Source: a virus
DNA: 28,630 nt
Strand: one strand, 5' to 3'
UHGV virus genome: UHGV-0195556
Position numbers and translations under genes: made by a program. Under the pieces are notes generated by a model. That model made no database searches. It was not told where the DNA came from and saw only the letters and a list, made by a program, of their open reading frames with translations. This document shows positions 811 to 26,883 of the stretch, piece by piece; positions within the stretch are counted from its first letter, which is position 1; the number at the start of each line of letters is the position of its first letter.

Positions 811-1210
811 GAATGTGATTAATGAATTAAGAAATTGATTTTTATGAATATAAAATTTTTATTGTCATAATTCTATACACTTAGTTATACACATAAGAAA
901 AAATCAGTGATTTTTATGGACTGGGTGTATCTTCCCCAGCCCAGCCCAGCCCCAACAAACCTAATGCAGTCTTTAGTTTACAAATTGTTACATATATTAT
1001 TCGTCAAATTTCATTATTATCAGAGATTAACAAGCATTGGCAAAGGTTGTCACTCAGTAATACTCACCATTATTAACTATTATTCACCATTATTTAGTAT
1101 TCAAATTCTTTGAATGAGTTTGAAAGTGCCAGTCTTTACGTATTAATTCTTCTGTGCAAGTATATATACACCCAATAGAGACTAATTAAGTCTTAGTATA
1201 AATATCTAAT

Positions 1211-1453
1211 GTGAAGGACATAGCCATGAGCTTATTGCCTCGGGAAAACGCACCCCAAAAAAGATATAGACTTCTGAGAATATCAGAAGTGATTAATTTG
1301 ACTGGCTTACCCAAGTCAACAATTTATCTAAAGATAAAGAATGATGAATTTCCGAACCAAGTTTCTATCGGTTCTCGTTCTGTTGCATGGGTGGAGCATG
1401 AAGTTAATGAATGGATAGAGAAGAATATTCTCAATAGAAAATTAAACTCCTAA
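1211..1453 (+). CDS. AlpA-family phage regulatory protein (small DNA-binding activator/excisionase-like)
   Basis: 80-aa ORF with MerR-like HTH typical of AlpA family; first gene inside the att boundary; AlpA is a marker of P4-like satellites. Confidence 0.7.
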   Translation: MKDIAMSLLPRENAPQKRYRLLRISEVINLTGLPKSTIYLKIKNDEFPNQVSIGSRSVAWVEHEVNEWIEKNILNRKLNS

Positions 1454-1470
1454 ATTGAGGTGGCAAATAT

Positions 1471-2331
1471 ATGGTTGACAATGTTTTTAAGAAGAAATTG
1501 GCATCAATTAAGAACGAACATGTGTCGGTGTTAGATAGTTACAAAGTAAGATCATTTAAAGAGACTCATAGCGACACGGCCTGTATTGTGCGTATTATTG
1601 AAATATATTCACTGAATAAGCTGCGAGCTAAAGGTGAAAAGCTGTATTCACTTACGGGGTTAACAGTACCTGATACGGAAACTGTGGCGAATGAGATCAA
1701 CCTGCTCCTGAGCCGTTATGCCCAGTTGTGTCGTCAGGAAGAGGAAGAGTTATCTTTCCGGCAGCGTGAAGTGACAAATGCGGAAGTTGCATGGAAAAGC
1801 ACATTCTCAAAAAACGGCGTCAGTAGCATTGCTGAAGCCAAAACGAATAAAATGGGGCATGCTGAACGAGCGGATGCTGAACGGTATTACCATCTGGCTG
1901 TTTCCCGGTTGAATGAACAACATAGTCGATTGAGCACGATCAAGCTTTTGCCGGGAGTACTGGCCGATGAAGGAAACTACATTGGGAAGGGAATCGATAA
2001 GCGTTTACTGAATATATTTCCTCAATCCGGCCAGATCCCTGCTGATTTTATTTCTGTATTTAATGACAGTGACGTTGTCCGTGATATTAAATTTATTACT
2101 GATGCACTCAAGTCTTTATCTGATTCCGTGAGTGAAATTATTAGTCGTTGTAGCGTTCCAACTGATCGTTATGTATTAAATAACGGTGGAATGGCAAGAG
2201 CTATGGCTTACAGGGAGTACTATCGAGCAGATAATTATGTATTACGTTCAGTCGTAAGTGACCGGGATTATGTTGAGCATGTAATGAAATACAATCTGGT
2301 TACTGAGTACAAAAATAAAATCTTTTCTTAA
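1471..2331 (+). CDS. hypothetical protein; candidate capsid-assembly factor by position (immediately upstream of capsid homologue)
   Basis: 286-aa ORF with RBS (GAGGTGG) 18 nt after the alpA stop; no family recognised by eye; does not match my recollection of P2 gpO or P4 Sid/Psu. Confidence 0.45.
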   Translation: MVDNVFKKKLASIKNEHVSVLDSYKVRSFKETHSDTACIVRIIEIYSLNKLRAKGEKLYSLTGLTVPDTETVANEINLLLSRYAQLCRQEEEELSFRQREVTNAEVAWKSTFSKNGVSSIAEAKTNKMGHAERADAERYYHLAVSRLNEQHSRLSTIKLLPGVLADEGNYIGKGIDKRLLNIFPQSGQIPADFISVFNDSDVVRDIKFITDALKSLSDSVSEIISRCSVPTDRYVLNNGGMARAMAYREYYRADNYVLRSVVSDRDYVEHVMKYNLVTEYKNKIFS

Positions 2332-2353
2332 ATACTTAAAAAGGTGAAAAACT

Positions 2354-3358
2354 ATGTATGCCTTCAAAACTGAAAGGCCGGACGCAGCACGTCGTTATCA
2401 TAATAAATTCGTCACTGGCACTAACTATCAGGAAGAATCAAACAGACGCTTTGCATTAAGCGAACCTACTGAAAATATACTGCGTACCTCAATTCTGGAA
2501 TCCGGGTGGCTTATTAAAAATATTACCCTACGTGATGTTAACGCCGTGTCAGGTAATGCCGTCAATATTGGTGCCAGTGAACTGTATACCGGACGTGTGG
2601 ATGGTGGCCGTTTCCACAAAAAAATGGCAATCAATGGTACGGAGTTCTTTCTGACAGAGACGGATACCTGCGCCCGGATCAGCTATTCCGATATGTCTCA
2701 TATTTACCATACCGGCGTGCCGGATGAGTTTGAGAAAACGGTTGAGAGCTTTTTTGCCCAGGCATATGCGCTGGACATGCTGCGGGTCGGTTTCAACGGT
2801 GTGTCGATTGCAAATACTACAAACCCGGAAATCAATAAAAAAGGCGAGGATGTCAATATTGGCTGGCATGCACTGGCGAAAGCCTACGGGAACGGAAAGC
2901 AAATCATCTCTGAGCCTGTCACTCTGGGAGAGACTGGCACCTGGAAAAATATTGATGCTCTGGCCAACCATCTGATTACAGAGCTTATTGCTGAGCAGTT
3001 TCGTGAAGATCCTCGTCTGGTTGTACTGGTTGGGGCAGAGCTGGCAGCACATCAACGCCTGAAGTTATTTAATGCCGCAGACCGCCCGTCTGATGTGAAT
3101 GCGGCACAGATGGCTACAAGTTCTGTTGCTGGCCGCTTTGCGTTTATTCCCCCGTTTATGCCGGGTAAGCGTCTGGCAGTAACGACGCTGGATAATCTGC
3201 ATATTTACACTCAGGCGATAACACGCTGGTTTCGTGCTGAGTTTGATGATGAAAGCAGTGAATACGTGCATTCCTACCTGCGCAATGAAGGTTATGCACT
3301 CGGTGAACCTGAACTGTACGCGGCTGTTGATGAGTGCACCCTGACGTTTGCGGATTGA
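2354..3358 (+). CDS. P2-family major capsid protein homologue (GpN-like)
   Basis: 334-aa ORF with RBS; colinear blocks match recalled P2 gpN (VGFNGV vs AGFNGV; DPRLVVLVGAEL vs DPDLVVIVGRQL; LDNLHIY vs LENLSIY; ESGWL vs ESSDFL). Confidence 0.65.
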   Translation: MYAFKTERPDAARRYHNKFVTGTNYQEESNRRFALSEPTENILRTSILESGWLIKNITLRDVNAVSGNAVNIGASELYTGRVDGGRFHKKMAINGTEFFLTETDTCARISYSDMSHIYHTGVPDEFEKTVESFFAQAYALDMLRVGFNGVSIANTTNPEINKKGEDVNIGWHALAKAYGNGKQIISEPVTLGETGTWKNIDALANHLITELIAEQFREDPRLVVLVGAELAAHQRLKLFNAADRPSDVNAAQMATSSVAGRFAFIPPFMPGKRLAVTTLDNLHIYTQAITRWFRAEFDDESSEYVHSYLRNEGYALGEPELYAAVDECTLTFAD

Positions 3359-3371
3359 CTTAGCGACAGAA

Positions 3372-3398
3372 AGACCCGCTCAGAGGCGGGTCTCGTTT
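3372..3398 (+). terminator. putative rho-independent terminator after capsid gene
   Basis: Inverted repeat AGACCCGC / GCGGGTCT with 6-nt loop followed by a short T-containing tract. Confidence 0.4.
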
Positions 3399-3496
3399 AC
3401 AGCATCAGGAAAAATGAAGAACTATTTTTAAGCAGAGGCTTAAGCATGCCAGCGTTAATTAATCCAGGCAATGATCAGTTTTCGGTTATAAATTTC

Positions 3497-3526
3497 TTGC
3501 CTCACCAGGAATGCGCGGGATATAGT
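3497..3526 (+). promoter_or_regulatory. putative sigma70 promoter driving the immunity/replication operon (P4 PLE analogue)
   Basis: TTGCCT then 18-bp spacer then TATAGT, located upstream of the seqA-like element. Confidence 0.3.
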
Positions 3527-3556
3527 TTAAAGGTTGCCGCAAAATCGGCAGCCGGG

Positions 3557-3581
3557 CGTAGGAACCCGTGTTATCTGAAGG
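3557..3581 (+). promoter_or_regulatory. seqA-like target site of the immunity RNA
   Basis: GCGTAGGAAC...TATCTGAAGG, repeated at 3781-3821 and complementary to 3735-3756. Confidence 0.5.
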
Positions 3582-3588
3582 CGATACT

Positions 3589-3611
3589 ACACGCGCTAGG
3601 CGTGTTTTTTT
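3589..3611 (+). terminator. rho-independent terminator directly downstream of the seqA-like site (immunity terminator candidate)
   Basis: Stem ACACGC/GCGTGT with 5-nt loop followed by TTTTTTTGTGT. Confidence 0.55.
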
Positions 3612-3696
3612 GTGTCGCAGCTTTGACTCACCTAAAATTTATGGTGTGGTGGCTGATTGTATTTTTTTATTTTTTACGCCACATCATCAGAATTAT

Positions 3697-3775
3697 GGTA
3701 GTCCAGGCGGGGCAGCTTTCGGGCTGGCCGGTATCCTTCAGAGCCGGTATTCCTACCCCCGTCTGGGCTACCACC
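3697..3775 (+). ncRNA. structured small RNA, P4 CI-RNA-like immunity factor candidate
   Basis: 16-bp closing stem GGTAGTCCAGGCGGGG / CCCCGTCTGGGCTACC (two G-U pairs) enclosing internal hairpins; interior segment CCTTCAGA..TTCCTAC is complementary to both flanking seqA/seqC-like repeats; no credible ORF. Confidence 0.5.
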
Positions 3776-3780
3776 CATGA

Positions 3781-3821
3781 GCGTAGGAACTCCGGTGGTA
3801 GCGTTACCCGCTATCTGAAGG
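3781..3821 (+). promoter_or_regulatory. seqC-like target site of the immunity RNA
   Basis: Second copy of GCGTAGGAAC...CTATCTGAAGG immediately upstream of the RBS of the next CDS. Confidence 0.5.
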
Positions 3822-3832
3822 AGGTTGCCATT

Positions 3833-4036
3833 ATGGCTACAGTCCCTGCTTTATCTCACCCTGAATTTACCTTTGTCTTTCTGGCTGTCCGCCGTACAGA
3901 CCGTGATGCCCGTCCACGCCCTGTGCGTGTAATCGCAGAATGCGAGCATGCTGCACGCCTTAAACTTGCCACTGAATTTATCCTGAGCTTTGCTGCCCGT
4001 ATCCCTGTGAAAAGAGCCGGGGAGGTGGTTGCATGA
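3833..4036 (+). CDS. hypothetical protein (first gene of the replication operon)
   Basis: ATG preceded by GAAGGAGG; stop overlaps the next start (ATGA); the 196-aa track ORF 3446-4036 is rejected upstream of this ATG. Confidence 0.5.
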   Translation: MATVPALSHPEFTFVFLAVRRTDRDARPRPVRVIAECEHAARLKLATEFILSFAARIPVKRAGEVVA

Positions 4037-4269
4037 AATCCATGAATTTTAAGCAAGGCTGCATATTGAGTGAACAGGGGGAGAGTCGTCTGTTACGGGC
4101 GGCACTGGCCAGTGAGTTTCTTGCAGAGGTCTTGTCCGTGCCCACAGTGAATGGAGCGAGAACTGTTTCAGCGGAAGGCGCTGCGGCTTTAGTGGCCTGT
4201 ATTGCCGAACAACTGGATGGCGTTGTTAAGGAAACCAGCACAATTAAGGGAGTGATGCGCGATGAATAA
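4033..4269 (+). CDS. hypothetical protein
   Basis: 78-aa ORF translationally coupled to neighbours on both sides. Confidence 0.5.
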   Translation: MKSMNFKQGCILSEQGESRLLRAALASEFLAEVLSVPTVNGARTVSAEGAAALVACIAEQLDGVVKETSTIKGVMRDE

Positions 4270-4672
4270 TAATCAAAATTTAAAGGCGCATGCTTTACGA
4301 ACAGCAGTCTTACGCTACTACATTGCTGATGCATTCATTTCCTTAATGGTGCGTGTTCATAATGAACCTGTTTATATTGAAGATGGCGAACGAATAGAAC
4401 TCTCCCACGAAAAAGTGGTGAGTAATATTATTTACCATATTGAAATGCCGTGGGTGAATGAGTTTGGGGCTGATGCTGGTTGCATACTGGCCGCAGAGAA
4501 ACTGGAAAAAATGCTTAAACCAGGCTTTATGTCAGAAAATATTCGCCTGTCAGTTTTTGGTGTCACAGAGATGCGTGAGGTTTACCGGGATATTATTTTC
4601 GGAGCACCTGATGGCGAACTACCCGAAGGTTTTGAATTTGTGAAGCCGGAAGGTCAGGAGGTGCTGCTGTGA
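4262..4672 (+). CDS. hypothetical protein
   Basis: 136-aa ORF; stop overlaps the GTG start of the primase gene. Confidence 0.5.
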   Translation: MNNNQNLKAHALRTAVLRYYIADAFISLMVRVHNEPVYIEDGERIELSHEKVVSNIIYHIEMPWVNEFGADAGCILAAEKLEKMLKPGFMSENIRLSVFGVTEMREVYRDIIFGAPDGELPEGFEFVKPEGQEVLL

Positions 4673-7356
4673 AAACACCGTCTGTATCCACGATTTCCGG
4701 AGCTGCAATTGGGCGCTGGCCTTATATCCTGTCAGCATTAGGTATTAAAGTACCGTCCGCAGGACATCATGGGGCTTGCCCTGCCTGTGGTGGAAAAGAT
4801 CGTTTTCGACTGGACGATAAAGCGGGGCGAGGGACGTGGTTTTGTAATCAGTGCGGTCATGGCGATGGTCTTGATCTGGTTCGTCTGGTGACAGGAAGAA
4901 AGATAAAAGAAGTCGCCGGGATGGTATCTGAGGCGCTTGCATTACCAGAAATACAGGAGAAGCCCGCATTGCCAGCCAGGAAAAAGGCCGCAGGAAAAGA
5001 AGCGGGCGCGGAGCGATATACCAGACTCAGACAGCAGTCCTGCAATGGTGAGCCGGTCTATCTGACAAATAAGAGCTTACACGGGTATTCACTTCCCTTG
5101 CTGTCACAGCCTTTGAATCTGGCCGGAATAACATTTTCCACCGGTTCATTACTGCTGCCTTTGACGGATATTTCCGGGAATATTACTGGTGGCCAGCTTA
5201 TCAATCCTGACGGGGATAAAAGTCTGCTGCCCGGTAGCCAGCTGTCTGGCGCATTCATTGCCCTGACCGATATACCCGCTGAAACACCTGAACAGGTGAT
5301 TATCACTGAGGGTTTTGCCACGGCGCTTACCGTCAGTCTGCTGACTGAAGGATGGATCGTGGCGGCTGTCGCTGCCACCAATTTACTGAAGGTGACGGAG
5401 CAGATCCGAAAACGCTGGCCGGAAACCCGGATCATTCTGGCCGGAGATAATGATCTGGCTGACGGCAAAGAAAACACCGGGCGTATTCAGGCAGAGAAAG
5501 CCGCCAAAGCGGTGGATGGCTGGGTAACGCTCCCTCCGGTACGCCATAAGGCTGACTGGGATGATTATCGGCAGGAAGTGGGGAAAGAACGGGCGAGAGA
5601 TGCCTTTCGTGAAGAAATGACGCTGCATGGCAAAGGGCAGACCCGTTTACCAGAAGGGTTCCGGCTGACAAAAGAATATTTGTGGTACGACAAGCTGGTT
5701 AATAAGTCTGATGGTGATACAGAGATACGTAATATCAAAATTTGCAGTCCGTTGCGGGTGACGGCAATCACCAGTGATGCTGATGGAAGTAATTACGGGC
5801 GTTTGCTGGAATGGGAAGATACCAACGGAAACAGCCGTAAATGGGCAATGCCGATGGAGATGCTGGGCGGTAGCGGGGAAGAACTGCGCCGCGTTCTGCT
5901 GGTTAACGGGCTTTCTTACATCAACATTAACGGCATGGCCAGAGCATTCCTGATGGAATATATCTCGCTGTGTAAACCGGACAGAAAAGTAACCTGTGTG
6001 AATAAAACTGGCTGGCACGGCGGGGTTTACGTTCTCCAGGATGAAGTGATAGGGCGCGAAGCCCAGTCAGTCATCTTACAAACATCGAGTGTGCAGGGGC
6101 GTGATTTTCGTGTCAGCGGCACATCAGAGGGCTGGCGTGAAAATATAGGCCGTTATTGCATAAAGAATGCCCGTCTTGCCTTTGCGGTGAGTCTGGCATT
6201 TGCTGCCCCCCTTCTGAAACTGGTTGGTATCGGCGGTGGAGGTTATCACCTCAAAGGGGAATCCACAGACGGTAAAACCACGACGATGAAAGTGGCTGCA
6301 TCAGTATGTGGTGGAACAGATTTCTGGCATACGTGGCGGGCGACGGGGAATGCCTTAGAAGGAACGGCGAGCCGCCGCAATGATGCCACGCTGATGCTGG
6401 ATGAAATCCGGGAGGTTGACGGCAGGGAGGCGGGAAATATCGCTTATATGCTGGCTAACGGGCAGGGCAAAGCCAGAGCCAGAACAGATGGTTCGGTAAG
6501 GGAAACCAACCGCTGGAATCTGTTGTTTCTGTCTACCGGGGAACTGTCACTGGTAGAGCATGCGGCAAGCGCCGGGGAACGTACGTATGCCGGGGTTGAG
6601 GTCAGAATGATCCAGATCCCAAGCGATTCGGGCAAGTATGGCGTGTTTGAAGAACTTCATGGCTTCAGTAGCGGGAAAACCCTGGCTGAGCATCTTGAGC
6701 AGCACGTAGCGCATTATCATGGTGCACCATTCCGCGACTGGCTGTATTGCCTGACCGCTGATCTGCCGGAACTGACCAGTCAGGCGAAAGCCTTATTGAA
6801 AGAGTATACCCGAAGGCTGACGCCGGAAAATGCCGGGAATCAGGTTGGCCGGGCTGTTACCCGTTTTGCTCTGGTTGCGATGGCCGGGGAGCTGGCCACA
6901 AAAGCGGGCATCACAGGATGGCCGGAGGGAGAGGCCTTTCGTGCCGCTCAAAGCTGTCTGGCTGCATGGATGGCTGACCGGGGCCATACAGCTAATCAGG
7001 AAGATAAAGCGGCACTTGAACAGGTTCGGGACTTCATGACGCGTAATCAGTTCAGTCGGTTTGCTGACTGGAATGACGACAGGAACCGGCCTGTTTCAAT
7101 GATGGGATTCAGAAAAGTCGATAAAGGAGACAACGTGACAGAGCCGGTTGTGACGTTCTACGTTCTCCCGTCAGGCTGGAAGGAGATCTGTAAGGGATTT
7201 GACTCGCGTAAGGTGGCCAGGTTGTGTGTGGACGCGGGCTGGCTGAAACCCGGTGAAGATGGCCGGACGCAAAACAGCATTCGCCTGCCAGAAATAGGGC
7301 TTAAACGTGTGTACCAGTTCAATACACAGGTACTGGGAAGCGCTGAACCTGAGTGA
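4669..7356 (+). CDS. P4 alpha-like bifunctional DNA primase/helicase (zinc ribbon + TOPRIM + P-loop NTPase)
   Basis: 895-aa ORF with GTG start after AGGAGG; N-terminal CPACGG...CNQCGH zinc-binding motif; TOPRIM-like ITEGFATAL..AGDND; Walker A GESTDGKTT. Confidence 0.8.
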   Translation: MKTPSVSTISGAAIGRWPYILSALGIKVPSAGHHGACPACGGKDRFRLDDKAGRGTWFCNQCGHGDGLDLVRLVTGRKIKEVAGMVSEALALPEIQEKPALPARKKAAGKEAGAERYTRLRQQSCNGEPVYLTNKSLHGYSLPLLSQPLNLAGITFSTGSLLLPLTDISGNITGGQLINPDGDKSLLPGSQLSGAFIALTDIPAETPEQVIITEGFATALTVSLLTEGWIVAAVAATNLLKVTEQIRKRWPETRIILAGDNDLADGKENTGRIQAEKAAKAVDGWVTLPPVRHKADWDDYRQEVGKERARDAFREEMTLHGKGQTRLPEGFRLTKEYLWYDKLVNKSDGDTEIRNIKICSPLRVTAITSDADGSNYGRLLEWEDTNGNSRKWAMPMEMLGGSGEELRRVLLVNGLSYININGMARAFLMEYISLCKPDRKVTCVNKTGWHGGVYVLQDEVIGREAQSVILQTSSVQGRDFRVSGTSEGWRENIGRYCIKNARLAFAVSLAFAAPLLKLVGIGGGGYHLKGESTDGKTTTMKVAASVCGGTDFWHTWRATGNALEGTASRRNDATLMLDEIREVDGREAGNIAYMLANGQGKARARTDGSVRETNRWNLLFLSTGELSLVEHAASAGERTYAGVEVRMIQIPSDSGKYGVFEELHGFSSGKTLAEHLEQHVAHYHGAPFRDWLYCLTADLPELTSQAKALLKEYTRRLTPENAGNQVGRAVTRFALVAMAGELATKAGITGWPEGEAFRAAQSCLAAWMADRGHTANQEDKAALEQVRDFMTRNQFSRFADWNDDRNRPVSMMGFRKVDKGDNVTEPVVTFYVLPSGWKEICKGFDSRKVARLCVDAGWLKPGEDGRTQNSIRLPEIGLKRVYQFNTQVLGSAEPE

Positions 7357-7380
7357 TTATCGCGTGAGTCTTATTTTTAT

Positions 7381-7570
7381 GAGGTAACACTGGTAACAGA
7401 GGTAACACCCGTTACTGATGCGGTTCTTCAGTGTTACCAGTCAAAAATACTGACTGGTAACAGAGGTAACAAAAAATGGTGTGTTACCACGCGTTACCTC
7501 TTGATTTTGCTAACTGGTAACAGATTAAATCCTTTTAAATCAATAGCGTTACACGTGTTACCAGTGTTAC
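7381..7570. repeat. iteron array, candidate satellite replication origin
   Basis: At least 9 copies of GGTAACA / TGTTACC in both orientations within about 190 bp immediately downstream of the primase gene; resembles P4 type-I iterons (TGTTCACC) as recalled. Confidence 0.6.
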
Positions 7571-7638
7571 ACGTTCAGAACAAGAGGTAGGGATCCAAAT
7601 CCCTTCTTCTGGCGGGCAACAGTATAGGGCACAGAACG

Positions 7639-7911
7639 ATGAAGATGATGAGAATGTACTGCCCCACATGTCAGGCAGTAGCACGGATAGGTAAAACAAA
7701 CAGGAAACACCCACAACTGTACGATGTGTACTGCTATTGCTCTAATGTGGAGTGCGGTCACTCGTTTGTGATGAATGTTGCTTTCTCCCATTCCGTTAGT
7801 CCAAGCGCGCTGAACGGGCAGGGAAGGGTTAAAGAGCTGATTGATGCAATTCCACCCGAGGAACGGGAAAAGGCTTTAAAGTTGCTGCTGGCTGCGCAAA
7901 AGAATGGGTAA
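7639..7911 (+). CDS. Ogr/Delta-family zinc-finger late-gene transcriptional activator
   Basis: CPTCQ...CYCSNVEC four-cysteine motif as in P2 Ogr / P4 Delta; exact start codon uncertain (several in-frame ATG). Confidence 0.7.
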   Translation: MKMMRMYCPTCQAVARIGKTNRKHPQLYDVYCYCSNVECGHSFVMNVAFSHSVSPSALNGQGRVKELIDAIPPEEREKALKLLLAAQKNG

Positions 7912-8590: not shown

Positions 8591-9472
8591 ATGAGTCATA
8601 ATAAAAAGGAATATGCTAAATTTTTCCGTCGCCCCATTTTTTCATCCTTAGCAAAAGGTAAGGATATTTCGGATTTATTTGGGAGTTTTGATTCTTACTG
8701 CTATGAAACACTGTTTTCAAACAATGATAATAATGAACATGAGATTTCACTAAGGGATTTATTTACATCATTATATGATTTTTTGCGTCTGAATTATAGA
8801 AATGAATATGTTTATAAGACAGCACTTGTCAATAAAATAATATTCGGTAAGCACAGCCCAAAAACAAGTTCGTCGTCCATAGAGTTACCAATTAAAAACT
8901 CTATAGTGGATGTTGCGGTGTTTAATGGTACGTCTACAGCTTACGAGATTAAGACAGAGTATGATTCACCAAAAAGGTTGATTACTCAAGCCCCTGATTA
9001 TTTGGATGTTTTTGATAAAGTGTATATAGTTACACATCCAGAGTATGCAAGTAAATATTGTGCTTTAAATCTCCCCAGAGTGGGAGTTATGGTTTTGAAT
9101 AAAAAAGATCAATTGAGTGTCATTAAGGAGGCAGATTCAAATATTGATTATATTAAAAGTGACAGCTTGTTTTCAGTTCTTAGAAAGGAAGAGTTCTTAG
9201 CTATAATAGAAGATTACACTTCAACTAAAATAAATATGCCTAACGGATTGGTTTATGAATATTGTAAAGAGATATTCATGCAGATGCCATTAAACATAGC
9301 AAATAAATACTTTATCTCTGCTATGAAAAAAAGATGTAACGATAAAGTTTTTTTGGATTATATTTATTCTCTTCCAGCATGTTTACGTGTTTTAGGTTAT
9401 GCAACACCATTATCAAGAAAGCAAAAAGAATTCATCATGAATTTGATGGATGTAAAAATTAAAATTTGTTGA
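8591..9472 (+). CDS. hypothetical protein with PD-(D/E)xK-like nuclease motif; cargo gene A
   Basis: 293-aa ORF in strongly AT-rich DNA; motif SIELP...IVDVAVF...AYEIKTE fits an E...D...ExK restriction-endonuclease-like signature. Confidence 0.55.
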   Translation: MSHNKKEYAKFFRRPIFSSLAKGKDISDLFGSFDSYCYETLFSNNDNNEHEISLRDLFTSLYDFLRLNYRNEYVYKTALVNKIIFGKHSPKTSSSSIELPIKNSIVDVAVFNGTSTAYEIKTEYDSPKRLITQAPDYLDVFDKVYIVTHPEYASKYCALNLPRVGVMVLNKKDQLSVIKEADSNIDYIKSDSLFSVLRKEEFLAIIEDYTSTKINMPNGLVYEYCKEIFMQMPLNIANKYFISAMKKRCNDKVFLDYIYSLPACLRVLGYATPLSRKQKEFIMNLMDVKIKIC

Positions 9473-9493
9473 TATCCTCAGGAGTTGTAAGTT

Positions 9494-10444
9494 ATGTATA
9501 GCCCATATTTGTATGCGAGAAGTACAGAGTTATTATGCCTTAGGGACCTCGTTGCGAAGGGAGTTAGCCTAAATGGTCTGCTACCAATTTTAGAACCAAT
9601 TAACGTCAATACGAGAAATTTATTAACATGTTTAAATGTTTGGAATTCTGACATAATTGTTATCCTTAATCCTTATCAGGAAGATTTTTCTTCACACAAT
9701 AACGTCTTAACTTTAAATCAAAATTTATCAAGTGTATTAACAAATAAAAATAATATCATCTCTGGATATCTTATTCAGCCCAATACAACGATTAATGATA
9801 TTAATAATTGGTTGAATGCTAACTTAAATAGACGAGTTGCACTTCTATATGATAATCCATCATTATCCAACTCTGATATTCAGTTGTTGGCGACAAATCA
9901 ATTGATTAGTTATCATGTTGTTTTAAATAATAAAATGCTTCCTAATCAGTGCGCTCTTCTTCCTTTGTCGAAGTTAATTATTATTAGCGATAACTTTAGA
10001 AAGTTAGCAAAAAATGCTGATTATAATGGGCCGGAACTTTTCACGCACGCACATCAATTCGTGGGACAAAATTACTTAGGATTTGGCGATTATACAATTA
10101 CTGGCCAGGTACTAGATCTTGGAGGTGGTCAACCTTCTGCTGTTGCCGCACATTTGGTGTTCAAGAATTTACAAGCGAATACAGTTTGGATTCGTCATTT
10201 TGTATCAAGCAACACGCAACGAGGAAGTTCAAATGTTACTGCAAAATTTTTAGATGTTTCAGATCAAATTACAAATCTTGTTCCCCAACATCCAACCCAG
10301 TTTGGCAGCAACATTGGTCTTAACTATTATTATTACAATAGTCAACCAACTGTAAGGCATTTCCCTGGGTTGCCAAAAAACAAACAGTATCAAATTACTC
10401 ACCATATTTGTTTCATGCTGGATTTAATAGCAGGTCGTATTTAA
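9494..10444 (+). CDS. hypothetical protein; cargo gene B
   Basis: 316-aa ORF with AGGAG RBS 21 nt after gene A, same AT-rich composition; contains GFGDY and LDLGGGQPSAVAAH motifs; 3' end overlaps the convergent integrase by 21 bp. Confidence 0.55.
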   Translation: MYSPYLYARSTELLCLRDLVAKGVSLNGLLPILEPINVNTRNLLTCLNVWNSDIIVILNPYQEDFSSHNNVLTLNQNLSSVLTNKNNIISGYLIQPNTTINDINNWLNANLNRRVALLYDNPSLSNSDIQLLATNQLISYHVVLNNKMLPNQCALLPLSKLIIISDNFRKLAKNADYNGPELFTHAHQFVGQNYLGFGDYTITGQVLDLGGGQPSAVAAHLVFKNLQANTVWIRHFVSSNTQRGSSNVTAKFLDVSDQITNLVPQHPTQFGSNIGLNYYYYNSQPTVRHFPGLPKNKQYQITHHICFMLDLIAGRI

Positions 10445-11599
10445 TAAGCTAGCGTACCATTCCATCATTACTTGTCGATCTTTAATATATTGCGCATGAT
10501 TGTAAGTACCTCGAATAGAGTTCTTATCAACATGCGCAAGCTGCATTTCAATCCAGGCACTTTCAAACCCATGCTCATGCAAGATGGTGCTCATGGTATG
10601 CCTGAAACCGTGACCCGTTAACCGACCGTGATAACCCAGTAGTTTTATCACTTTGTTGATGCTGGCTTCGCTCATTGGTTTACTGACGTCATTCCGGCCA
10701 GGGAAAACGAGGCTGTAATTCCCTGTTATTTCTTGCAGCTTTTTCAGGATATTGATCGCCTGAGTTGATAACGGAACCAGATGGGGGCGGCGTTTCTTCA
10801 TCCGTTCTTTGGGGATCTCCCATAAGGCATTATCTAAATCAAACTCAGCCCATTCCGCTGCACGTAGTTCAATTGTTCGCACGCCTGTTAGCATCAACAG
10901 CTGCGTGGCGTATTTGGTAACTAAACTGCCCTGATAGTTATCCAGAGCATTAACGAACTCGGGCAACTCGCTTTCAGTCAGGAACGGGAAGTGTTGGGTT
11001 TTAGGTTTGTTGAGTGCGATAGCTAAATCGGGTGCAAAATTATACTTTGCTCTACCAGTGGCAACAGCATAACGAAGCACTTCACCACAGCGGCGGCGGA
11101 TCTTACTGGTTTGCTCTAGCGCACCTCTTTTCTCTATTTTTTGCAGGACGGTTAGCAGTTCTAATGGTTCAATCTGCTCAATTGGGCGCTGGCCGATAAA
11201 AGGAAAAATATCCTTTTCCATACAATTGAGAACCTCTTTTGCATAACCCTCTGACCAGGTGGCTTTTTTCGATGAGTGCCATTCTCTGGCCACAGACTCA
11301 AAGCTGTTCTCATGCGCGAACTGCAAAGCAATCTTATCTGCTTTTCTGGCTTCACTTGGGTTTATCCCGTTGGCTAACATCGAACGCGCTTCATCACGTT
11401 TGGTACGTGCCTGTGCCAACGACACATCGCCATATACGCCAAAGGAAATCATCTTAGGCTTACCTGCAAAGCGATAGCGAAAACGCCAGCCTTTACTGCC
11501 CGCTGTGTCGATCAGGAGTGATAGCCCCATACCATCGTTAAGCGTATAGGGTTTGTCCTTCGGTTTTGCTCTTTTTATTTGGATGTCAGATAGCAGCAT
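10424..11599 (-). CDS. tyrosine recombinase, P4-type integrase
   Basis: N-terminal AKPKDKPYTLNDGMGLSL...WRFRY and C-terminal HGFRHT...Y motifs typical of P4-family integrases; start taken at MLLSD (the upstream in-frame ATG at 11647 is less likely). Confidence 0.85.
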   Translation of the reverse strand: MLLSDIQIKRAKPKDKPYTLNDGMGLSLLIDTAGSKGWRFRYRFAGKPKMISFGVYGDVSLAQARTKRDEARSMLANGINPSEARKADKIALQFAHENSFESVAREWHSSKKATWSEGYAKEVLNCMEKDIFPFIGQRPIEQIEPLELLTVLQKIEKRGALEQTSKIRRRCGEVLRYAVATGRAKYNFAPDLAIALNKPKTQHFPFLTESELPEFVNALDNYQGSLVTKYATQLLMLTGVRTIELRAAEWAEFDLDNALWEIPKERMKKRRPHLVPLSTQAINILKKLQEITGNYSLVFPGRNDVSKPMSEASINKVIKLLGYHGRLTGHGFRHTMSTILHEHGFESAWIEMQLAHVDKNSIRGTYNHAQYIKDRQVMMEWYASLLNTTCY

Positions 11600-24256: not shown

Positions 24257-24618
24257 CAATGGATTATTCACAGTTAAGTGATTTTGAAATTAACAAGCGA
24301 GTGGCAATTTGCTGTGGATTTGCTCCCGAAGATTGCGAAATCGCAAAGTTGGGAACATCAATCGTTGGTGTTGAGTGGGATGACGAAACTGGTTATGCAA
24401 TAAAAACGGTTGATTACTGTAAAAGCCCATCAGACGCAGAGCCGATTATCGTAGAGAACAGAATTGGAATTATTCCAGCACCAGAAAATGGATTATGGAA
24501 GGCAGCGCATAGAAAAGTTGGCGGTGATAGTACCCCATATCATATGACTCAAGATGAAAACCCACTCCGCGCTGCCATGATTGTCTTTCTCATGATGCAG
24601 GACGCCAATAATGCTTAG
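24253..24618 (+). CDS. hypothetical nin-region protein
   Basis: Start taken at MTMDYSQ overlapping the ninE stop; family not recognised. Confidence 0.45.
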
Positions 24619-25326
24619 CCCATCCCAATCCATTCAATACCAGAAAGAAAGCGTCGAGCGAGCTTTAACGTGCGCTAACTGCGGTCAGAAGCTGCATGTG
24701 CTGGAAGTTCACGTGTGTGAGCGTTGTATATATGAATGCTTAAATATGGTGGAACATAATGAGAAATATAAGCAACATAGACGAATTAAGAAATAAATTA
24801 TCATATGATGATGTTTTAGGTGTACTTAGATGGAAAGTGTCTCCTTCTAATAATGTTAAGGTTGGCAGTGTTGCTGGTTACATTAGGAGTGATGGTTATA
24901 GGATGTTAACTATCGATGGTGTAATTACTTATGCTCACCACGTTATATGGATGATAAATAATGGTGAGATTCCATTAGGGTATAAAATTGATCATATAAA
25001 TGGAGTAAGGTCAGATAATAGGCTATCTAATCTTCGATTGGTTACACACCAACAGAATGCACAGAACCAAAAGAGAAAAATAACCAATTCGTCAGGAGTG
25101 ACTGGAGTATATTTCAATAAAGAGAGATGTAAGTGGATTGCGAATATATGCGTAGATGGGCGCACCAAATATCTTGGAATATTTGCTAGCATCATTGACG
25201 CTATTGCAGAAAGGAAGAGGGCAGAAAAAGAACTGGGTTTTCATGAAAACCATGGCAGACCATAACTGCGCAGAACTGATGAGCGATCCGAATAGCTCAA
25301 TGTACGAGGAAGAAGACGATGAGTGA
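24611..25326 (+). pseudogene. ninF: ninF interrupted by a 539-bp insertion carrying an HNH endonuclease gene
   Basis: Codons 1-39 (24611-24727) match recalled lambda NinF up to HVCE(H/R)C; the remainder CAELMSDPNSSMYEEEDDE is encoded at 25267-25326 in a different frame. Confidence 0.65.
24759..25265 (+). CDS. HNH homing-endonuclease-like protein (HNH + AP2-like DNA-binding region)
   Basis: IDHINGVRSDNRLSNLRLVTHQQN HNH motif; AT-rich; sits exactly inside ninF. Confidence 0.75.
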   Translation: MRNISNIDELRNKLSYDDVLGVLRWKVSPSNNVKVGSVAGYIRSDGYRMLTIDGVITYAHHVIWMINNGEIPLGYKIDHINGVRSDNRLSNLRLVTHQQNAQNQKRKITNSSGVTGVYFNKERCKWIANICVDGRTKYLGIFASIIDAIAERKRAEKELGFHENHGRP

Positions 25327-25531
25327 TTACCTGAAATGGTATCTCTGCCACCGCTGGTTAATTAAGTTTGCTGTAAAAGACTGGATGACAGCGGATGCCA
25401 ACAAGCTTAAGCAAAGAAAAGACTATTACTACGCCAGAATGAAGGAAAACTACTGCTCAATTCGCACTCGCATATTTATTAAAAAAGACCTTCAGTCAAT
25501 TCTTCAATTGCGAGGGAAGGTAAATGGCTAA
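25319..25531 (+). CDS. hypothetical protein
   Basis: 70-aa ORF whose start overlaps the ninF remnant stop. Confidence 0.4.
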   Translation: MSDYLKWYLCHRWLIKFAVKDWMTADANKLKQRKDYYYARMKENYCSIRTRIFIKKDLQSILQLRGKVNG

Positions 25532-25814
25532 CCTACGCAAAGAAGCGCGCGGCAGAGAATGCCAGGTACGTATTTACGGCGTATGCAATGGCAATCCTGA
25601 AACTACAGTTCTGGCACATTACCGGATGGCTGGAATTTGCGGAACGGGAATGAAGCCTGACGACCTGATCGGCGCATGGGCTTGTAGCGCGTGTCGCGAT
25701 GAAATCGACCGACGCACCCATAATCTCGACAACAAAGACGCCAGACTTTACCACCTCGAAGGCGTGATCAGGACGCAGGCGATACTGCTGAAGGAGGGGA
25801 AGATTAAGTCATGA
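25524..25814 (+). CDS. ybcO: YbcO-like protein (DUF1364, predicted nuclease)
   Basis: RGRECQVRIYGVCNGNPETTVLAHYR...CSACRDEIDRRTH resembles recalled DLP12 YbcO. Confidence 0.65.
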   Translation: MANLRKEARGRECQVRIYGVCNGNPETTVLAHYRMAGICGTGMKPDDLIGAWACSACRDEIDRRTHNLDNKDARLYHLEGVIRTQAILLKEGKIKS

Positions 25815-26335
25815 ACGGTAAAAGATATCCAACACAAAAAGAAATCAATGAATTGTATGAATATAATAGCGAAACAGGTTTGTTTATATACAAGAGAAGA
25901 GAAAGTGCAAGAGAGTGCTGGAATTCAACATATGCCGGTAAGATTGCTGGTTCTATAGATGAAAAAGGATACGTTCGTATATCTGTAAATAAAAAAGTTT
26001 GTCGAGCTCATAGAATCGCATGGATATCCTTTTATGGAAGTGAACCTGATGGGGAAATTGACCACATAAATGGAGTTAAAAGCGATAACAGAATATGCAA
26101 TTTGCGCGTTGTAGATGATAAACAGAACTCAAGGAACAGAAAAAAGCCTATTAATAATCGCTCTGGAGTAATGGGGGTTGCCTACTATAAGAAGAATAAA
26201 AAGTGGGGCGCATATATAAACAGTGATAATAAAAAGATATTTCTTGGATTATACGATGACATATCTCTAGCCGTTAATGCCAGAAAATTGGCGGAATCAC
26301 GATTGGGGTATCACCATAATCATGGGAGAGGATAA
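25811..26335 (+). CDS. HNH homing-endonuclease-like protein (paralogue of 24759-25265)
   Basis: IDHINGVKSDNRICNLRVVDDKQN HNH motif plus GVMGV..KKW..AYI AP2-like region; AT-rich; wedged between ybcO and rusA with overlapping start/stop codons. Confidence 0.75.
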   Translation: MNGKRYPTQKEINELYEYNSETGLFIYKRRESARECWNSTYAGKIAGSIDEKGYVRISVNKKVCRAHRIAWISFYGSEPDGEIDHINGVKSDNRICNLRVVDDKQNSRNRKKPINNRSGVMGVAYYKKNKKWGAYINSDNKKIFLGLYDDISLAVNARKLAESRLGYHHNHGRG

Positions 26336-26698
26336 ATGGCAGAATACAGATTCACACTTCCGTACCCACCGTCGCTGAATACCTACTGGCGAAGACGGGG
26401 AAGCCAATATTACATAAGCGACAAAGGCCAGAAATACCGAAAAGACGTTCAGCAAATCATCCGCCAACTCAAGTTAGACATTTTCACCAAATCACGACTC
26501 CGTATCAAAGTCATCGCAGACGTTCCGGACTCCCGCCGTCGCGACCTCGACAACATCCTGAAAGGTTTACTCGACTCCCTTATCCACGCCGGATTTGCGG
26601 AAGACGACGAGCAATTCGATGACATTCGCGTAATTCGTGGCGTGAAAGTACCAGGCGGAAGGCTTGGAATAAAAATCACCGAACTGGAGAACGCATGA
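26336..26698 (+). CDS. rusA: RusA Holliday-junction resolvase
   Basis: PPSLNTYWRRRG...RRRDLDNILKGLLDSL matches the RusA family. Confidence 0.85.
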   Translation: MAEYRFTLPYPPSLNTYWRRRGSQYYISDKGQKYRKDVQQIIRQLKLDIFTKSRLRIKVIADVPDSRRRDLDNILKGLLDSLIHAGFAEDDEQFDDIRVIRGVKVPGGRLGIKITELENA

Positions 26699-26883
26699 AC
26701 GCCACAATTCAAACGATACCAGAGCTTCTTATCCAGACACGAGGCAATCAGACCGAAGTGGCAAGGATGCTTTCCTGCGCAAGAGGAACAGTGCTCAAGT
26801 ACAACCGAGACAGCAAAGGCGAGCGTCACGTAATAGTTAACGGCGTCCTGATGGTCAAACAGGGCAAGAGGGGAAGGCGATGA
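26695..26883 (+). CDS. ninH: NinH
   Basis: GNQTEVARMLSCARGTVLKY...VNGVLMV matches recalled lambda NinH. Confidence 0.75.
   Translation: MNATIQTIPELLIQTRGNQTEVARMLSCARGTVLKYNRDSKGERHVIVNGVLMVKQGKRGRR

Follow-up and report, generated by a model that had tools for sequence, protein, structure and literature searches.

The virus genome UHGV-0195556, a stretch of 28,630 nucleotides (nt) that we refer to as the window, carries a gene for an HNH endonuclease between ybcO and rusA in the nin region of a lambdoid prophage. From approximately base 1000 onward, the window is identical to the chromosome of Escherichia coli Ecol_276 (NZ_CP018953.1, reverse strand) except for one single-nucleotide polymorphism; its first ~1 kb differs from that chromosome. 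The gene, which we call HNH2 (25811 to 26335, plus strand), encodes 174 amino acids (aa) and was identified from the listing of open reading frames (ORFs), the Pfam family HNH_3, the family PHROG 99, and an AlphaFold2 model. Upstream lies ybcO (25524 to 25814, plus strand; Pfam YbcO, 7e-44), which encodes a DUF1364 His-Me finger nuclease, and downstream lies an intact rusA (26336 to 26698, plus strand; Pfam RusA, 2.4e-16), which encodes a Holliday-junction resolvase of 120 aa. Another HNH-AP2 gene, HNH1 (24759 to 25265, plus strand; 168 aa; Pfam HNH_3, 1.2e-19), is located inside ninF. An earlier note on this DNA had described HNH2 as wedged between ybcO and rusA, with its start overlapping one neighbor and its stop abutting the other, and the ORF list, the sequence, and Pfam agree with that description. 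Specifically, the ATG of HNH2 (25811 to 25813) shares bases with the TGA of ybcO (ATGA, in the context ...AAGTC ATGA ACGG...), while its TAA (26333 to 26335) is followed immediately by the ATG of rusA (...GGA TAA ATG GCA...).

Anatomy of the insertion and its product

The earlier note had placed ybcO directly next to rusA in DLP12-type nin regions, and this is what we found at uninterrupted sites. In phage mEp043 and at four empty E. coli sites (loci L003, L004, L005, and L015), the stop codon of ybcO overlaps the start codon of rusA at a junction that reads ...GATTAAG(C/T)C ATGA ACGAATATCAGTTTG(T/C)GCT.... One of these loci, L004, shares the ninX-ninF-orf-ybcO-rusA-ninH backbone of the window but contains neither HNH gene. 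Compared with the empty sites, the window contains exactly 525 extra bases, visible as a 525-column gap and equal to the length of the ORF. Alignment with nin regions lacking the insert, a comparison that had been proposed beforehand, thereby gave a clean 525-bp presence/absence difference at the ybcO/rusA junction. HNH2 begins where the rusA start codon lies in empty sites, and the edges of the 525-bp element are ambiguous within 7 nt (left edge, 25811 to 25817; right edge, 26336 to 26342) because ATGAACG starts both the HNH2 ORF and the rusA of the empty site. The insertion is precise and leaves both neighboring genes intact. Its composition is foreign, being AT-rich relative to the flanks. 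Over whole genes, the GC content is 36% in HNH2 and 36% in HNH1, versus 54% in ybcO and 50% in rusA, and sliding-window values range from 0.32 to 0.38 within both HNH genes versus 0.49 to 0.56 in ybcO and rusA.

The insert is also integrated into the translation and transcription of its neighbors. The last codons of HNH2, CAT GGG AGA GGA TAA, make a GGGAGAGGA Shine-Dalgarno (SD) sequence 4 nt ahead of the rusA ATG (26324 to 26338 with the ATG included, plus strand; read from the sequence). Empty sites lack this SD, and there the SD of rusA is found in the 3' end of ybcO. The element therefore takes over the coupling to ybcO translation that rusA has at empty sites, and rusA is provided with a new region for initiation. 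On the plus strand between 24400 and 27000, we found neither a sigma-70-like promoter nor an intrinsic terminator, and without a promoter or terminator of its own HNH2 must be read within the early-right (nin) transcript. Rfam detected no group I or group II intron, or any other RNA family, around either HNH gene in the same interval. An intron- or intein-encoded homing endonuclease was ruled out on the grounds that the insert is the ORF itself, that it is intergenic, and that Rfam reports no intron there.

The predicted protein has a known architecture, that of the I-HmuI-like HNH(N)-AP2 homing endonucleases. Its only nuclease match in Pfam was HNH_3 (PF13392), at aa 65 to 108 (E = 1.1e-16; score, 60.6 bits; cutoff, 24.8), and PHROG 99 ("HNH endonuclease") matched both HNH2 (4.5e-63) and HNH1 (3.4e-70). 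HNH_3 and I-HmuI-like enzymes form group 2 in a classification of the His-Me finger superfamily (PMC5714182). The catalytic HNH(N) motif, AHRIAW...EIDHINGVKSDNRICNLRVVDDKQN (aa 65 to 108; 26003 to 26134, plus strand), is delimited by the Pfam match, by invariant residues, and by alignment with I-HmuI. Residues Y18, H67, D84, H85, N87, D92, N93, N97, L98, N109, V123, G146, and A154 are invariant across HNH2 and 54 relatives, and HNH2 has all of them. They include the catalytic Asp-His pair and downstream Asn residues (D84, H85, N93, N97, and N109), whose individual roles we take to be those known from I-HmuI. This enzyme (structure 1u3e) was the sole solved relative found by sequence (phmmer, E = 0.0096), with the alignment running through the (V)DH...N...N motif.

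Structure prediction extended the comparison to the C terminus. The AlphaFold2 model, which was built on the alignment with the 54 relatives, had a predicted local distance difference test score of 93.5 and a predicted template modeling score of 0.79. In a Foldseek search against the Protein Data Bank, the first ~109 residues of the model resembled I-HmuI 1u3e (E = 3.5e-4, probability 1.00), and the last 45 to 50 residues resembled the plant AP2/ERF domains 7et5, 7wq5, and 1gcc (root mean square deviation, 1.2 to 1.5 Å; probability 1.00). The model and Foldseek thus place a putative AP2-type DNA-binding domain of three strands and a helix at aa ~118 to 165 (26162 to 26305, plus strand), with strands at residues 123 to 126, 131 to 138, and 141 to 148 and a helix at 151 to 165. 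The Pfam AP2 family itself stayed below threshold on HNH2 (E = 0.034; 14.9 bits versus a cutoff of 33.3). A terminase-associated HNH protein of the HK97 gp74 type was considered and rejected given the nin location, HNH_3 as the only match, and the absence of a PF01844-type HNH domain; the terminase lies more than 5 kb downstream of HNH2, past Q and the lysis genes.

Distribution, flanking sequence, and nin-region relatives

To describe how widely the insert is distributed, we searched 50,697 phage records by megablast with the interval 25319 to 26883. Flanks were matched in 75 records, each in two pieces covering 52 to 66% of the query, as is the case for flanks without the insert, and HNH2 was absent from all 75 of these flank-sharing records. 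By tblastn, relatives of HNH2 were present in 3,553 phage records, often with several per genome, and none in these records was 60% or more identical to HNH2. Among 5,426 complete E. coli genomes, HNH2 occurred at an identity of at least 98.9% in 33, in every case on the chromosome, in single copy, and beside DUF1364/ybcO. The insert was located at the ybcO/rusA junction in all 30 listed matches of these 33 genomes, as well as in all 9 loci that were inspected. The sources of the strains that carry it are humans, poultry, dogs, a panda, pigs, and water. Of the insert-bearing genomes, that of KCJ3K291 (NZ_CP054407.1) alone has a second copy of this type of rusA. The uninterrupted mEp043-type ybcO-rusA module was matched in 996 E. 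coli genomes, with 921 at 80% coverage or more, a count that includes the 33 insert-bearing genomes (their pieces being joined across the 525-bp gap). The site is empty in ~890 genomes, and occupancy is ~3.6%. With the insert in 0 of 75 phage records and 33 of 5,426 E. coli genomes, HNH2 is, in line with the earlier note, an accessory gene and not a conserved core component at this position.

Searches for the protein pointed to the same narrow range. The cluster of HNH2 at 90% identity contains 145 sequences, and all of the named ones are from E. coli. Beyond this cluster, the nearest relative in a search of 5.8 billion proteins was just 49% identical, and a scan of one genome per species returned only a 42% relative, in a metagenome-assembled genome of Kiritimatiellae. 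When the contigs encoding cluster members were looked up, the context was again ybcO-rusA, and these protein, genome, and contig searches did not recover HNH2 from any other species or genomic setting. A literature search turned up no account of this ybcO/rusA insertion. Within a well-known class of genes, HNH2 represents a new lineage restricted to E. coli, and its insertion site is new as well.

The insert is linked to a sequence difference in the gene downstream of it. We compared nine insert-bearing loci (the window, L006, L007, L008, L010, L011, L012, L013, and L014) with five empty loci. Codons 2 to 7 of rusA (26339 to 26356, plus strand) are recoded in all nine insert-bearing loci and in none of the five empty ones, reading GCA GAA TAC AGA TTC ACA with the insert versus AAC GAA TAT CAG TTT GTG at empty sites (MAEYRFT versus MNEYQFV). 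This amounts to 11 of 18 nt changed, a divergence of 60% over 18 nt. The tract extends from 26357 to 26375 (plus strand), where positions 26359, 26362, 26368, and 26375 are invariant in the presence of the insert, and this extension is also found, partly or wholly, in rare empty alleles. Across the nine aligned insert-bearing loci, positions 26342 to 26375 are identical. A 44-nt query (26342 to 26385) was matched over its full length in exactly 33 E. coli genomes, all among the listed insert-bearing genomes, and there was one partial match (query positions 16 to 44) to the empty locus L015, which has the 3' half of the tract, CTTCCGTACCCACCGTCGCTG. The strictly linked part of the tract is therefore codons 2 to 7. 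The L015 sequence itself (2480 to 2530, an empty site with CTTCCGTACCCACCGTCGCTG) could represent the background into which the insertion first occurred, or it could have lost the insert through recombination.

In the phage collection, a DNA search for the recoded tract found none, with all alignments beginning at query base 22, and tblastn found no recoded rusA 5' end (best match, 37 of 40 residues). Upstream, in ybcO, there was no insert-linked difference, so the linked polymorphism is confined to the downstream side. The recoded codons 2 to 7 are a candidate immunity or target-site polymorphism, or a candidate donor-derived co-conversion tract.

Sequence diversity differed sharply between the insert and the genes around it. 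Among the nine insert-bearing loci, nucleotide diversity (pi) was 4.3% in ybcO (9 haplotypes) and 2.5% in distal rusA (9 haplotypes), whereas it was 0.7% in the insert and 0 in the tract. Divergence from the empty loci was 3.9% for ybcO, 2.7% for distal rusA, and 30% for the tract. Flank divergence from empty loci is thus the same as diversity within the insert-bearing group, and the polymorphic patches in ybcO and distal rusA form a mosaic common to insert-bearing and empty loci. The wider backgrounds vary as well. Replication genes differ among loci (DnaB-like, toprim, replicative helicase, or IstB-like), the Q gene of insert-bearing loci is of a 489-, 519-, or 624-bp type, and loci differ in the presence of dam, ninX, a KilAC antirepressor, a 213-bp ORF, and HNH1. 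Taken at face value, these sequences point to a young, near-uniform cassette in many old and diverse backgrounds. One of the insert-bearing loci (L012, strain WCHEC4533) has a gene of the GIY-YIG nuclease family just past the lysis genes (6752 to 7237), which may be another homing-type element.

The HNH2 ORF is uninterrupted in 9 of 9 aligned copies, and a coding sequence (CDS) is annotated under all 30 listed matches. There are 11 polymorphic sites (5 nonsynonymous and 6 synonymous), and the ratio of nonsynonymous to synonymous polymorphism per site (pN/pS), about 0.2 to 0.3 from very few sites, is weak evidence of constraint. The copy in L010 (2501 to 3025; cluster representative P0001) has D84V at the invariant catalytic Asp, and one database member of the cluster (P0131), encoded on a 198-kb contig, is N-terminally truncated to 125 aa.

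The earlier note had called the two HNH genes of the window paralogous on the basis of shared motifs. Those motifs reflect true homology, with 164 residues aligned at 40% identity (E = 2e-37), and at the level of the family the term stands. It does not hold in the sense of a local duplication of the ninF copy, which we ruled out since HNH1 ranks only 46th of 54 among the relatives of HNH2; HNH2 ranks 30th of 54 among those of HNH1. The two genes are alike in family, architecture, low GC content, and accessory status. They differ in that HNH1 interrupts a coding sequence whereas HNH2 is intergenic, in that neither is the nearest relative of the other, and in their distribution. HNH1 was found in 45 of the 5,426 E. 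coli genomes, its exact protein is encoded on at least 1,000 contigs, including some from Escherichia albertii, and the two genes occur together in only 4 genomes (Ecol_276, MNCRE44, 875, and AMSCJX03), compared with 45 and 33 genomes for each. Three of these (Ecol_276, MNCRE44, and 875) have identical copies of both. From these comparisons, HNH1 and HNH2 are independent arrivals from a large family.

HNH1 interrupts ninF after codon 38, and the C-terminal 20 ninF codons persist downstream as a remnant (~25267 to 25326) that is annotated as a partial NinF. The truncated NinF (window positions 24611 to 25326) keeps its second CxxC, as CERC in place of CEHC, and gains a new tail of 23 aa. Two more HNH-AP2 genes were seen in nin regions of other strains. 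One lies upstream of ninB in AMSCJX03 (L007, 1 to 600) and is 38 to 39% identical to the genes of the window, and the other lies between ninB and dam in GPEC1446 (L015, 78 to 605) and is 32% identical to them. With four HNH-AP2 genes of 32 to 40% mutual identity at four nin positions, the proposal of repeated homing into this region is supported.

Other parts of the window also contain mobile or accessory DNA. According to the annotation of Ecol_276, genes of the sce7726 and sce7725 families (~8591 to 10444) adjoin the prophage integrase (~10424 to 11599, opposite strand), a typical spot for accessory or defense cargo. Between dsdC and the lambdoid prophage, there is a P4-like satellite-type block (~1200 to 7900) with genes for a P2-family major capsid protein, an Icd-like protein, a primase-like protein (DUF927), and a zinc-finger protein of the ogr/Delta type. 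Two mobile elements thus lie side by side in the window.

Proposed homing and alternative explanations

We consider it likely that HNH2 is a free-standing HNH(N)-AP2 homing endonuclease gene that invaded lambdoid (P22/HK620-type) E. coli prophages at the 4 bp where ybcO and rusA overlap. Two hallmarks of such genes were found here, namely, presence or absence at one precise site and a linked polymorphism in the flank, although the latter was seen downstream only. The low diversity of the insert within diverse flanks is compatible with preferential inheritance, without being proof of it. The target of HNH2 is probably the ybcO/rusA junction, and by analogy with characterized relatives the protein may cleave DNA, home, and exclude markers.

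Under this reading, homing would take place in cells undergoing lytic growth or induction, where a related phage or prophage whose junction is uninterrupted is present as well. The protein would bind the empty junction, including rusA codons 1 to 7, through its N-terminal and AP2 DNA-binding modules, and its DH-N-N metal site would nick or cut there. Recombinational repair from the insert-bearing genome would then copy the gene, together with a few tens of flanking bases, into the cut genome. The insert-bearing allele is proposed to be protected because its site is both split and recoded. The expected outcome would be that markers are excluded locally and that the cassette spreads over otherwise unrelated mosaic backgrounds.

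Several observations weigh against homing. The left flank has no linked polymorphism, so any co-conversion tract is one-sided. Occupancy is low, at the ~3.6% given above, and no sequenced free phage has HNH2. The nin operon is silent in lysogens, and chances for homing would therefore be limited to induction or co-infection. Furthermore, differing rusA identity was one basis on which the nine loci were chosen, and flank diversity is inflated by that choice. The mosaic pattern could also arise from ordinary homologous recombination alone, acting in flanks that are conserved among mosaic lambdoid phages. The D84V copy and the 125-aa cluster member suggest that some copies are decaying, as is expected in the life cycle of homing endonuclease genes. 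Finally, cleavage by HNH2 and inheritance of the insert are inferred from analogy.

A more specific version of the homing hypothesis is tentative and, in our judgment, has well under an even chance of being correct. It holds that the cassette is an active homing element specialized for temperate phages, in which the mobile unit consists of the ORF, its built-in ribosome-binding site, and the recoded six-codon rusA leader as an immunity determinant, and that upon induction it would cut empty junctions in co-resident or superinfecting genomes. If so, the cassette would drive gene conversion between prophages in one chromosome and exclude the Q-proximal markers of a rival, and the nin region would be a battleground of several independent HNH-AP2 elements.

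Outside of homing, the explanation that survives best is a passive one. The insert could be a "moron," an HNH gene captured once by illegitimate recombination and spread by ordinary recombination in its flanks with no endonuclease drive, the enzyme being inactive or irrelevant. Lambdoid nin regions are generally very mosaic, the flanks of empty loci equally so, and the low occupancy (33 of ~921 modules) fits with this account, as do the D84V and truncated copies. Yet the protein retains every catalytic residue that is invariant in the family, each aligned locus has an uninterrupted ORF, a CDS is annotated under each listed match, and pN/pS is less than 1. Insert diversity is six times below that of the upstream flank. 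Moreover, the recoding of 11 of 18 nt is perfectly linked to the insert despite recombination breakpoints within 40 nt, a linkage that is hard to maintain without selection or drive. On balance, we regard passive spread as improbable.

We give very little credence to the idea that HNH2 has been domesticated and serves the phage, either in recombination or DNA processing with YbcO and RusA or in degradation of host DNA, instead of being selfish. Its location in a recombination-related operon, with a nuclease gene on either side (PMC5714182), and its translational integration with the neighbors speak for such a role; but more than 96% of equivalent modules lack the gene, as do all sequenced phages that have the module, and so it is dispensable. 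Its composition is foreign, and its family, which has sequence-specific DNA-binding modules of the AP2 and I-HmuI types, is one that typifies homing endonuclease genes.

It is just as hard to credit a prophage exclusion or defense nuclease that is expressed in the lysogen and cuts incoming related phages with an uninterrupted junction: prophages often carry defense genes, and I-HmuI-like HNH enzymes expressed in trans reportedly cause marker exclusion in Skunavirus phages (PMC12724721), but HNH2 has no plus-strand promoter-like site nearby, lies within the repressed early-right operon downstream of replication genes, and was matched in PADLOC solely by generic "homing endonuclease" models and assigned to no defense system.

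Comparison with known systems and implications

Among characterized systems, the best analogue of HNH2 is mobE of phage T4, a free-standing HNH gene that has no promoter and is co-transcribed with the gene upstream (Wilson & Edgell 2009, PMC2790892). MobE nicks a genome that lacks mobE within the 5' region of the downstream gene, to which recombination points also map (PMC2790892). Like HNH2, mobE sits between two conserved genes and depends on upstream transcription. The two also agree in the side on which they leave their mark, as MobE targets the downstream gene at its 5' end and the polymorphisms linked to HNH2 likewise fall in the first rusA codons. Unlike HNH2, MobE is a classical zinc-containing HNH protein (PF01844-type, group 1 in PMC5714182) without an AP2 domain. 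It is also from a virulent T-even phage and its activity was shown experimentally, whereas HNH2 is known from its sequence and a model.

The nicking endonuclease I-HmuI of phage SPO1 (1u3e), which gave the best match among solved structures, shares with HNH2 an N-terminal beta DNA-binding module and the DH...N...N motif. It differs in having its gene inside a group I intron and in ending in a helix-turn-helix, while HNH2 is free-standing and ends in AP2. Closer in architecture are free-standing endonuclease genes referred to as HNN-AP2 or IPA-HNH, which have been described in the Xanthomonas phages Xp10, OP1, and Xop411 (PMC2248197) and in the Vibrio phage ICP1 (PMC10448857); see also Magnani et al. 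2004, as cited in PMC2248197 and PMC10448857. These proteins, like HNH2, combine an HNH(N) motif without Cys dyads with a C-terminal AP2 domain, and they have the boxes HR.AW, WP/EP, DH, DNR, NLR, and QN in common with it. As in the present case, several dispersed copies occur per genome, at varied stages of decay. In contrast, the Xanthomonas and ICP1 phages are virulent, while the hosts of HNH2 are temperate lambdoid E. coli prophages, and the HNH2 lineage has no relative more than 49% identical outside E. coli.

Most work on free-standing homing endonucleases so far has dealt with virulent T-even, T5, SPO1, ICP1, and Skunavirus phages. Our findings on HNH2 do not challenge current understanding. 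HNH2 provides a clean example, open to experiment, from the temperate lambdoid phages of a free-standing homing endonuclease gene, with a predicted target in the uninterrupted junction ...GATTAAGYC ATGAACGAATATCAGTTTGTG CT... and a predicted immunity polymorphism in the recoding of rusA codons 2 to 7 to GCA GAA TAC AGA TTC ACA. The nin region of E. coli prophages has received at least four independent HNH-AP2 insertions, and elements of this sort may help to create the mosaic boundaries for which the region is well known.

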